NCBI GenBank assembly: GCA_964016885.1 | Contig: OZ024743.1 | Location: 178,002,001 to 178,066,000, forward strand | Direction of reading: 5' to 3' | Origin: Eledone cirrhosa | Taxonomy: Eukaryota | Length of the DNA: 64,000 bases | Shown: positions 41,923 to 45,421 of the stretch, piece after piece | How positions within the stretch are numbered: position 1 is the stretch's first letter | Layout of the letters: each line of letters starts with the position of its first letter | Translations under genes and position numbers: made by a program | The notes under the pieces: model-generated | Seen by the model: the letters and a program-made list of their open reading frames with translations, nothing else | Database searches by the model: none | Told to the model about the DNA's origin: nothing

Positions 41923-42703
41923 GACCACAGATAGTATAGAAATGCCTTATATAGGTTTAAACTGTTTCATAAGTATGAAATTATCAGGAATATATATATG
42001 TGTGTGTGTAAATATATATGAATGTGTCAGGATTTCGACGGCTGAGCTCTTGCCGTTCAACAGCTACTTCCAGATATATATATATATACATACTTATGTA
42101 TTTCTCTCTCTCGCTCTATATATGTGTGTGTGTGAGCATGCGTCCATATGTGTATGTATGTGTGTGTGTGTATGGATCCTGAGCTACCTATCTTTGACAC
42201 CGTCGTTACTGTGTATAATCAATAAAGACCTTAATGTGAAACCTCTCTTTGTTCTTAATATATACACTCTGCTCTAGCATAGAGTGTTTATTTTGGTACC
42301 TTCCTCAGTAAACCACGATTCTGCTGGACCACTTATATATATATATATATTTATATATATATATATATATATATATATATATATATATATATATAAATTG
42401 AAACAAAATGAAAACGAAATTTCATTTCTCACTCTTAGTATGGCACTTACTTAAATGTAATTATGCATGTATACGTACATACATATATGTATACAGACGT
42501 ACAGTAGCATGCACATATATATATATATATATACATATATATATACATATGCATACAGGTACACATACATATATGCACGTATCAGTTTAGCGGCGCTTAT
42601 TATAACGTCGCTTTGTTCGTTTGTAAACAAACTGAACAGCCTGAATTTATGCCATACGGTGTTAAGGCAACCACGTCACCTTTTTGTTCAACACTAACAC
42701 AGG

Positions 42704-42748
42704 AACGATGTACTAGTTTCAAGCTTGTTAGCTATCATCAGCACCGTT
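42704..42748 (-). ncRNA. Minimal type I hammerhead, unit 1 (same motif at 43178-43222, 43652-43696, 44126-44170, 44600-44644)
   Basis: Minus strand: AACGGTG-CTGATGA-T AGC taacaa GCT T-GAAA-CTAG-TA-CATCGTT; 7-bp stem I, palindromic stem III, GUA site. Confidence 0.88.
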
Positions 42749-44994
42749 TACCCATCTGCCAGATAGTTGAACGTTCGAAAGTATGTACTTTCCTTATGAA
42801 AATTAACGGCTGAGCAGCCTAATTTGCACATTGAGTGAGTTAAATCGGTCAGGCATACCGAAAACGATAAATTGAAACAAAATGAAAACGAAATTTCATT
42901 TCTCACTCTTAGTATGGCACTTACTTAAATGTAATTATGCATGTATACGTACATACATATATGTATACAGACGTACAGTAGCATGCACATATATATATAT
43001 ATATATACATATATATATACATATGCATACAGGTACACATACATATATGCACGTATCAGTTTAGCGGCGCTTATTATAACGTCGCTTTGTTCGTTTGTAA
43101 ACAAACTGAACAGCCTGAATTTATGCCATACGGTGTTAAGGCAACCACGTCACCTTTTTGTTCAACACTAACACAGGAACGATGTACTAGTTTCAAGCTT
43201 GTTAGCTATCATCAGCACCGTTTACCCATCTGCCAGATAGTTGAACGTTCGAAAGTATGTACTTTCCTTATGAAAATTAACGGCTGAGCAGCCTAATTTG
43301 CACATTGAGTGAGTTAAATCGGTCAGGCATACCGAAAACGATAAATTGAAACAAAATGAAAACGAAATTTCATTTCTCACTCTTAGTATGGCACTTACTT
43401 AAATGTAATTATGCATGTATACGTACATACATATATGTATACAGACGTACAGTAGCATGCACATATATATATATATATATACATATATATATACATATGC
43501 ATACAGGTACACATACATATATGCACGTATCAGTTTAGCGGCGCTTATTATAACGTCGCTTTGTTCGTTTGTAAACAAACTGAACAGCCTGAATTTATGC
43601 CATACGGTGTTAAGGCAACCACGTCACCTTTTTGTTCAACACTAACACAGGAACGATGTACTAGTTTCAAGCTTGTTAGCTATCATCAGCACCGTTTACC
43701 CATCTGCCAGATAGTTGAACGTTCGAAAGTATGTACTTTCCTTATGAAAATTAACGGCTGAGCAGCCTAATTTGCACATTGAGTGAGTTAAATCGGTCAG
43801 GCATACCGAAAACGATAAATTGAAACAAAATGAAAACGAAATTTCATTTCTCACTCTTAGTATGGCACTTACTTAAATGTAATTATGCATGTATACGTAC
43901 ATACATATATGTATACAGACGTACAGTAGCATGCACATATATATATATATATATACATATATATATACATATGCATACAGGTACACATACATATATGCAC
44001 GTATCAGTTTAGCGGCGCTTATTATAACGTCGCTTTGTTCGTTTGTAAACAAACTGAACAGCCTGAATTTATGCCATACGGTGTTAAGGCAACCACGTCA
44101 CCTTTTTGTTCAACACTAACACAGGAACGATGTACTAGTTTCAAGCTTGTTAGCTATCATCAGCACCGTTTACCCATCTGCCAGATAGTTGAACGTTCGA
44201 AAGTATGTACTTTCCTTATGAAAATTAACGGCTGAGCAGCCTAATTTGCACATTGAGTGAGTTAAATCGGTCAGGCATACCGAAAACGATAAATTGAAAC
44301 AAAATGAAAACGAAATTTCATTTCTCACTCTTAGTATGGCACTTACTTAAATGTAATTATGCATGTATACGTACATACATATATGTATACAGACGTACAG
44401 TAGCATGCACATATATATATATATATATACATATATATATACATATGCATACAGGTACACATACATATATGCACGTATCAGTTTAGCGGCGCTTATTATA
44501 ACGTCGCTTTGTTCGTTTGTAAACAAACTGAACAGCCTGAATTTATGCCATACGGTGTTAAGGCAACCACGTCACCTTTTTGTTCAACACTAACACAGGA
44601 ACGATGTACTAGTTTCAAGCTTGTTAGCTATCATCAGCACCGTTTACCCATCTGCCAGCGACGTTATAATAAGCGCCGCTAAACTGATACGTGCATATAT
44701 GTATGTGTACCTGTATGCATATGTATATATATATGTATATATATATATATATATGTGCATGCTACTGTACGTCTGTATACATATATGTATGTACGTATAC
44801 ATGCATAATTACATTTAAGTAAGTGCCATACTAAGAGTGAGAAATGAAATTTCGTTTTCATTTTGTTTCAATTTATCGTTTTCGGTATGCCTGACCGATT
44901 TAACTCACTCAATGTGCAAATTAGGCTGCTCAGCCGTTAATTTTCATAAGGAAAGTACATACTTTCGAACGTTCAACTATCTGGCAGATGGGTA

Positions 44995-45039
44995 AACGGT
45001 GCTGATGATAGCTAACAAGCTTGAAACTAGTACATCGTT
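44995..45039 (+). ncRNA. Minimal type I hammerhead in the inverted part of the array
   Basis: aacggtg ctgatga tagc taacaa gctt gaaa ctag ta catcgtt, read directly on +. Confidence 0.88.
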
Positions 45040-45421
45040 CCTGTGTTAGTGTTGAACAAAAAGGTGACGTGGTTGCCTTAACACCGTATGGCATAAATTC
45101 AGGCTGTTCAGTTTGTTTACAAACGAACAAAGCGACGTTATAATAAGCGCCGCTAAACTGATACGTGCATATATGTATGTGTACCTGTATGCATATGTAT
45201 ATATATATGTATATATATATATATATATGTGCATGCTACTGTACGTCTGTATACATATATGTATGTACGTATACATGCATAATTACATATATATATATAT
45301 ATATATATATATATATGTATATATATATATATATATATATATATATATATATATATATATATATATATATATATATATATATATATATATACGATATATA
45401 TATATATATACGATATATATA

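Follow-up and report, generated by a model that had tools for sequence, protein, structure and literature searches.

A two-armed array of a 474-bp hammerhead repeat in Eledone cirrhosa with the insertion ends of Penelope-like elements: a candidate product of copying from circular RNA

Introduction

The mobilization of retrozymes by Penelope-like elements (PLEs) through RNA circles is a proposal made in PMC7229834, PMC7761336 and 10.64898/2026.07.22.740005, and the last of these, in the part of its text available, states that the precise mechanism is open. Among PLEs, the protein of the anole element Poseidon cuts AT-rich DNA on both strands and extends both, and its reverse transcriptase (RT), a predicted dimer, uses two internal start sites on the RNA that bound the tail seen in the genome (PMC11167929, available sections). 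PLE insertions carry an inverted 5'-truncated copy and a tail of 30-40 bp at one end, and often lie in (TA)n (PMC8557442, available sections). Retrozyme mobilization by circular RNA has been proposed rather than shown, and the origin of the inverted arms and tails of PLEs is open.

Here we describe an array from Eledone cirrhosa that can be compared with both kinds of element. The window is the whole stretch of DNA analyzed, 64,000 nucleotides of contig OZ024743.1 (positions 178,002,001 to 178,066,000, forward strand), and positions are counted from its first letter. A first reading of the letters without database searches, called the sequence-only reading below, had drawn attention to the array as retrozyme-like. 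The insertion is one very young two-armed copy of a high-copy non-coding hammerhead repeat.

Results

Architecture of the array

The 474-bp period is exact throughout the left arm, with 100% identity that extends to an internal TA/CA microsatellite, and the right arm is its exact inverted copy (Table 1; monomer position 1 is the first base past the predicted cut). In ribozyme sense the two arms diverge, pointing outwards; both outer ends of the array abut (TA)n, and the left flank is not the mirror image of the right. The sequence-only reading had reported about 6.1 identical non-coding 474-bp units in a (TA)n tract, with five hammerheads on the minus strand and one on the plus strand. Both counts are borne out, as 4.78 minus and 1.33 plus units with zero differences between them and six type I motifs, and the minus-strand cut is predicted here at the position that it had given, between 42711 and 42710. 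The inversion, which it had merely counted, is the key feature of the array.

The unit is 35% GC and non-coding, with no LTR organization and a longest ATG frame of 39 aa in sense and 76 aa in antisense. It holds no ORF for an RT or a GIY-YIG endonuclease and thus does not qualify as an autonomous Penelope-like element. The monomer is predicted to fold at -155.5 kcal/mol (z -8.1), a value owed in part to the central microsatellite hairpin.

Table 1. Positions of the array and its parts in the window.
Feature	Position	Strand	Remarks
(TA)n target tract, left flank	42334..42392	.	
Left arm, 4.78 units	42393..44658	-	RNA-sense 5' end at monomer 423, 3' end at 318 (site B)
62-nt tail between sites A and B, with predicted hairpin	42393..42454	-	at the left end of the insertion, missing at the right
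Hammerhead on minus	42701..42753	-	predicted cut 42711/42710
One cut-to-cut monomer, 474 nt	42711..43184	-	
Four further minus hammerheads, in steps of +474	predicted cuts 43185/43184, 43659/43658, 44133/44132, 44607/44606	-	
Head-to-head arm junction	44657..44658	.	2-nt microhomology AG
Right arm, 632 bp, 1.33 units, exact inverted copy	44657..45288	+	5' end at monomer 99, 3' end at 256 (site A)
Private G, monomer position 356	44914	+	also 42829, 43303, 43777 and 44251 on -; candidate A-to-I scar of the template
Type I hammerhead on plus	44990..45042	+	CUGAUGA 45002-45008; predicted cut after 45032
(TA)n target tract, right flank	45289..45392	.	

Another two-armed insertion (45422-45882), unrelated to the array and likewise in (TA)n, adjoins it on the right. 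It is a near-perfect palindrome centred near 45608, carries a hammerhead with a long stem II (core at 45695) and has the same asymmetry of a short and a long end; it resembles a terminus at 16300-16560 that follows a PLE-like RT fragment. Elsewhere, 28294-33500, 38185-38625 and 41530-41920 hold a decayed LINE on the minus strand, with RVT_1 and endonuclease matches, and transposase-like fragments that we take to be of mariner/Tc1 likeness.

The predicted hammerhead

Stem I of the predicted ribozyme runs for 7 bp and, beyond a bulge of 2 nt, for another 3 pairs, and stem II has 4 bp above a U.U mismatch at 10.1-11.1, followed by GAAA. Stem III is the palindrome ACUAGU, which is minimal within one molecule (1-2 bp) and is predicted to pair with itself as a 6-bp duplex at -6.8 kcal/mol; in the predicted fold of a 65-nt fragment the core is mispaired and stem III is not formed. 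With the U.U at the base of stem II and the minimal stem III, the model is that of a weak hammerhead with weak activity expected of the monomer. An axolotl retrozyme with the same U.U cleaves weakly as a monomer and well as a dimer (PMC7229834, available text), and one of nine dimers of Xenopus retrozymes was cleaved in vitro (10.64898/2026.07.22.740005, available text). Some ribozyme activity is likely from the sequence. The core is complete in each unit, as the sequence-only reading had it; its description of a minimal type I hammerhead stops short, in that stem I continues past the 2-nt bulge and the U.U was overlooked. Because of this extension the motif stands closer to the canonical type I than to the minimal PLE type, going by the available text of PMC4209133.

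The comparison with Rfam by Infernal that had been suggested did return a hammerhead match, at a score well short of acceptance: Hammerhead_HH9 only, scoring 19 bits (E 0.023, 241 nt) where the gathering score is 52. A scan of the whole array gave no hammerhead among the 150 of 158 matches listed, which are driven by the microsatellite and fall below the gathering score. In the 3.0-Gb genome there are 10,651 exact matches to the 32-nt core of the ribozyme, as against 0 for its reversed control, so that the hammerhead match is more than chance.

In a comparison of 16 relatives picked by hand, the core varies only at N7, and 91% of the cells are paired. Two-sided changes occur in 6 of the 17 named pairs, compared with 1-4 for slid structures; this count does not beat a shuffle control (363/500), and most of the changes trace back to a single divergence, that of two families. 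Of the 569 copies retrieved, 556 have A, C or U as the cut nucleotide.

An octamer-like motif at monomer 356-363 (window 44914-44921) is kept in both families and lies inside a predicted hairpin, and the private G alters its first base. A promoter role of the snRNA type, as in newt satellite 2, was considered for it; a literature search found no support for such a role of this motif.

A large family and its relatives

Arrays of the 474-bp family range from 1 to 19 or more units, with variable 5' ends and fixed 3' ends. A sister family (L211, L210 and others) has a 466-bp unit that is 60% identical, 1,633 exact cores and a 74-nt tail, and its hammerhead has G-C at 10.1-11.1 and a GUC cut site. 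Between sites A and B, both families retain the hairpin, together with a motif common to the two. An older subfamily (L236-L265), with C.A at 10.1-11.1 and a GUU cut site, predominates in the first 100 among 1,655 matches to a relaxed hammerhead pattern. At L069 (5150-6601) a different hammerhead array, of 310-bp units and with an inverted arm, adjoins a copy of the 474-bp family. The 474-bp family was also found in a public sequencing run, possibly of the same sample; contigs of runs X4, X5 and X6 yielded 4, 0 and 2 pieces, respectively.

Two fixed 3' ends, one of each per insertion

Array ends were classified in the first 53 hammerhead clusters of the core-match list, on contig C1, which comprise 75 hammerhead-bearing arms. 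The 3' ends lie at site A (monomer ~253-259) or site B (~312-318), about 60 nt apart, in 64 of these arms (36 B, 28 A), with 9 elsewhere or unclassified and 2 cut off. The sequence-only reading had called for a genome-wide look for arrays with circularly permuted ends. Further arrays are plentiful; their 3' ends gather at two fixed sites, a clustering across loci that speaks against random permutation.

The two sites are used in a regular combination. Fourteen of 17 divergent pairs in the 53 clusters are A+B and none is A+A or B+B; in each of the other three, one end is cut off or could not be classified. The sister family was sampled in 21 regions, five of them picked for long arrays, and there 11 of 12 pairs are A+B and one has an unclassified end. 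All classifiable divergent pairs are therefore A+B, 14/14 in the 474-bp family and 11/11 in the sister family. Two pairs flagged by script as convergent proved on inspection to be a divergent pair (L077) and two neighbouring insertions (L094), and both stand outside the 14/14. The left end of L053 is an A end by its sequence. Among loci picked by similarity, 13 of 16 are A+B, 2 are unclear and 1 is A+A (L033 plus L140, C8:24.19 Mb); the flanks of this lone A+A locus mirror each other for more than 2 kb at 97.9% identity, which marks it as an inverted duplication or an assembly feature. A target duplication of 12 bp is visible at L035, where the flanks are unique, and most others are hidden in (TA)n.

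Two fixed ends, one of each per insertion, are the published Penelope signature of a tail and two-site initiation. Priming of the Penelope type at two sites on RNA is very probably how these insertions arose.

Private bases, read-through and the nature of the template

The window unit differs from the unit of the array at L031 only by the G at 356. Among 8,222 genomic copies of the exact context of this position, 14 have G and 8,208 have A, and five of the 14 are the window's own (four in the left arm, one in the right). A second marker, 250A, is present in 16 genomic copies, namely 6 in the window, 6 at L031, 2 at L032 and 2 singles. A genome search found 250A and 356G together only in the window, so that this haplotype is without a source array in the assembly. 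The L031 array runs into a 200-N gap, and a source of the private G may be hidden. The G is borne by both arms of the window insertion, each of which crosses the cut site, indicating that the template already carried it.

Reading through the cut site is the rule in the family: of the 151 arms whose 5' end is visible (84 of 86 regions), 125 do so. For 35 of the 151, the 5' end falls in the central hairpin and is placed no more closely. By BLAST, 5' ends seemed to accumulate at the cut site (9/151, p 0.005), but on inspection the number shrank to 1/151, the other 8 extending 13-21 nt upstream. With 125 arms reading through the cut and one beginning there, cleaved linear monomers are not the usual template.

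Two loci bear most directly on editing of the template. At L037 two unit types alternate over 7 full and 2 partial units, and all 14 differences between them are A/G in ribozyme sense, with one A-type unit slightly different in the hairpin; going by the unit order, this is the pattern expected if an A-to-I-edited dimer circle was copied about four times. At L062 (C3:12.30 Mb) A>G changes at 30, 64 and 452 are found in 14 of 14 units, and all full units have G at the cut nucleotide, an edit that would be predicted to block self-cleavage. Across the family, the excess of A>G is not significant (shared A>G 32 vs T>C 20, p 0.21; private 27 vs 31; Fisher p 0.13), nor is the depletion of a 5' G (2 of 19 sites, p 0.43), and the case for editing therefore rests mainly on L037 and L062. 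An A-to-I origin of the private G is, on these patterns, somewhat favored.

At L032 plus L142 (C2:278.06 Mb) an array of period 8 includes the L031 unit type, one base off the window unit, once per period. Duplication at the DNA level does occur in the family, as shown by the mirrored flank of L033 and by long higher-order repeats in old arrays, and for this reason a circle is likely and unproven. From the sequence patterns we consider a circular template quite likely.

Penelope-like elements in the genome

PLE-like elements abound in the genome, among them ones with frames of 868 aa (L136) and 809 aa (L234). The unit has no homology to the terminal repeats of these two families (30 loci each), whose termini carry other hammerheads; the genome holds further PLE families beyond them. 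Retrozyme matches near the two families are separate neighbouring insertions or the junction at L079. At L079 and L059 the 5' end of a retrozyme is fused in sense to PLE coding sequence, a finding that is not diagnostic, as insertion into an older copy is possible. A relaxed hammerhead pattern was tried as a route to the partner element and retrieved the older subfamily instead.

In the window, 7874-9520, 14438-15004 and 53769-54330 are fragments of at least three PLE-like families, the first of which has 40,738 first-look candidates, and hammerhead-like motifs lie by such fragments near 9340, 16362 and 54291. Seven proteins were scanned with Pfam, which gave no match for four PLE-like fragments; from their motifs, we take these four to be PLE-derived.

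Discussion

The sequence-only reading had proposed that the array is a retrozyme, mobilized by Penelope-like elements and copied from a single template, and these proposals gain support from the core count, the A+B ends, the private G and the read-through of the cut site. The identity of the units, by itself, is insufficient to show rolling-circle copying. The following series of events would account for the insertion. Arrays would be transcribed, and the hammerheads, probably working as dimers through the palindromic stem III, would free monomers that would then be ligated into RNA circles of 474 nt. A PLE RT-endonuclease, perhaps as a dimer, would nick both strands of a (TA)n tract, and each nicked strand would serve as primer for one cDNA, the two starting at A and at B, on either side of the tail hairpin. 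Each RT would run round the circle, for 4.8 and 1.3 turns in the window insertion, and repair would join the two cDNAs head to head. The full combination of a PLE enzyme, a circular RNA and twin priming is likely. The most specific form of the model, in which the array is the fossil of a Penelope RT dimer that rolled from both ends of the break round one A-to-I-edited circle made by the ribozyme, is one toward which the balance tips slightly.

The alternative that survives best is an unlikely one, in which the PLE primes at both sites on long linear transcripts that were read from a source array and never cleaved, leaving the hammerhead a passenger and the circle unneeded. Long near-identical arrays exist that could be such sources, yet none in the assembly has the 250A+356G unit of the window. 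Similarly, if L037 arose in a single linear pass, its set of A/G differences in every second unit needs a source that already had this order, and the type of unit seen at L031 and in the window makes up one in eight units at L032, yet forms pure arrays elsewhere. The scarcity of 5' ends at the cut site fits uncut multimers and circles equally, and the ribozyme features are weak. For the anole PLE, the available text of PMC11167929 reports that hammerhead mutants left insertion in vitro unaffected and that unprocessed RNA was the main substrate, which also suits an uncut linear template.

Amplification in DNA is a good deal less probable. Here a PLE-primed monomer or short insert would later have grown in the manner of a satellite, by slippage, unequal exchange or gene conversion from arm to arm. 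That both window arms cross the cut site with the private G places the G on the template; the 6.1 units have zero differences, microsatellite included; and arrays of 1 to 19 or more units keep variable 5' and fixed 3' ends. Events of this kind have nevertheless left traces in the family, in the inverted duplication of L033, which includes the flank, and in old arrays with higher-order repeats and C>T and G>T changes, and local amplification is favored by Li et al. 2026 (10.64898/2026.07.22.740005, available text).

Repeated copying of a cleaved linear monomer, with the RT jumping from its 5' end to a 3' end, would be expected to give an exact monomer period and shared private bases if one molecule was reused. 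Jumping RTs often add bases, and all six copies in the window have exact cut junctions; cDNAs, moreover, seldom stop at the cut site (1/151), and we regard such jumping as very improbable. That the array, or the inversion in it, arose as an artefact of assembly or of folding back is scarcely credible: perfect identity leaves the number of units uncertain and the junction is known from the assembly alone, against which the arms end at different sites, the flanks are unmirrored, the A+B rule holds at many loci in two families, and a public run, possibly of the same sample, contains the family.

If the reading of twin priming on an edited circle is true, the insertion would directly prove, from the genome, the retrozyme cycle that has been proposed, and the inverted arms and tails of PLEs would be the outcome of two-site twin priming. 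The family would then log the size of its circles (monomer, dimer or larger), the editing of its templates and the excision of single units from mixed arrays, and the edit of the cut nucleotide at L062 would lock a circle shut. The mobilization of retrozymes and the origin of PLE arms and tails can both be tested directly in this system, since the priming sites are predicted exactly, the template is small, young insertions number in the thousands and the resident PLE frames look intact.

Comparison with known systems

The sequence-only reading had allowed that the family might be undescribed, and we did not find it in the literature searched; the kind of element has been described (PMC7229834; 10.64898/2026.07.22.740005, as far as their available text goes). 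Fixed ends, two arms and editing scars were not found described for retrozymes in the open-access main texts.

In common with animal non-LTR retrozymes as these sources present them, the repeat is built of tandem units that are non-coding and carry a single type I hammerhead, is below 50% GC, lacks LTRs, has thousands of copies and a highly paired predicted RNA, and occurs alongside PLEs (PMC7229834; 10.64898/2026.07.22.740005, available sections). It is likewise dispersed at high copy number, with a target duplication of more than 4 bp where one is visible (12 bp at L035). The U.U at the base of stem II is shared with the axolotl HHR_Amex2, and the palindromic minimal stem III with HHR_Amex1 (PMC7229834, available text). 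At 474 nt the unit exceeds the 170-400 nt given in the accessible part of PMC7229834 and falls inside the 51-972 bp of that of 10.64898/2026.07.22.740005. The unit lacks homology to PLE terminal repeats in the two families examined, whereas 21 PLE matches are reported for Xenopus retrozymes (10.64898/2026.07.22.740005, available text).

The likeness to endonuclease-bearing PLEs, as portrayed in the available parts of PMC11167929 and PMC8557442, extends to the inverted 5'-truncated arm, the tail at one end, the two fixed 3' ends, the AT-rich or (TA)n targets and the presence of a hammerhead in the repeated unit. Unlike PLEs, the retrozyme has no ORF and each of its arms is a concatemer of a small unit, and its tail measures 62 nt, and that of the sister family 74 nt, compared with 30-40 bp in PLEs (PMC8557442, available sections). 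Like Chlamys MRC1, it appears as a non-autonomous PLE derivative with multicopy head-to-tail insertions (PMC8557442, available text). Chlamys elements are those of green algae; their non-autonomous members match the 3' end of their autonomous partners, and most are without canonical hammerheads, according to the available sections of the same paper (PMC8557442). The 474-bp retrozyme is a new addition to the animal non-LTR retrozymes, and the genomic evidence for its probable route of copying is good.
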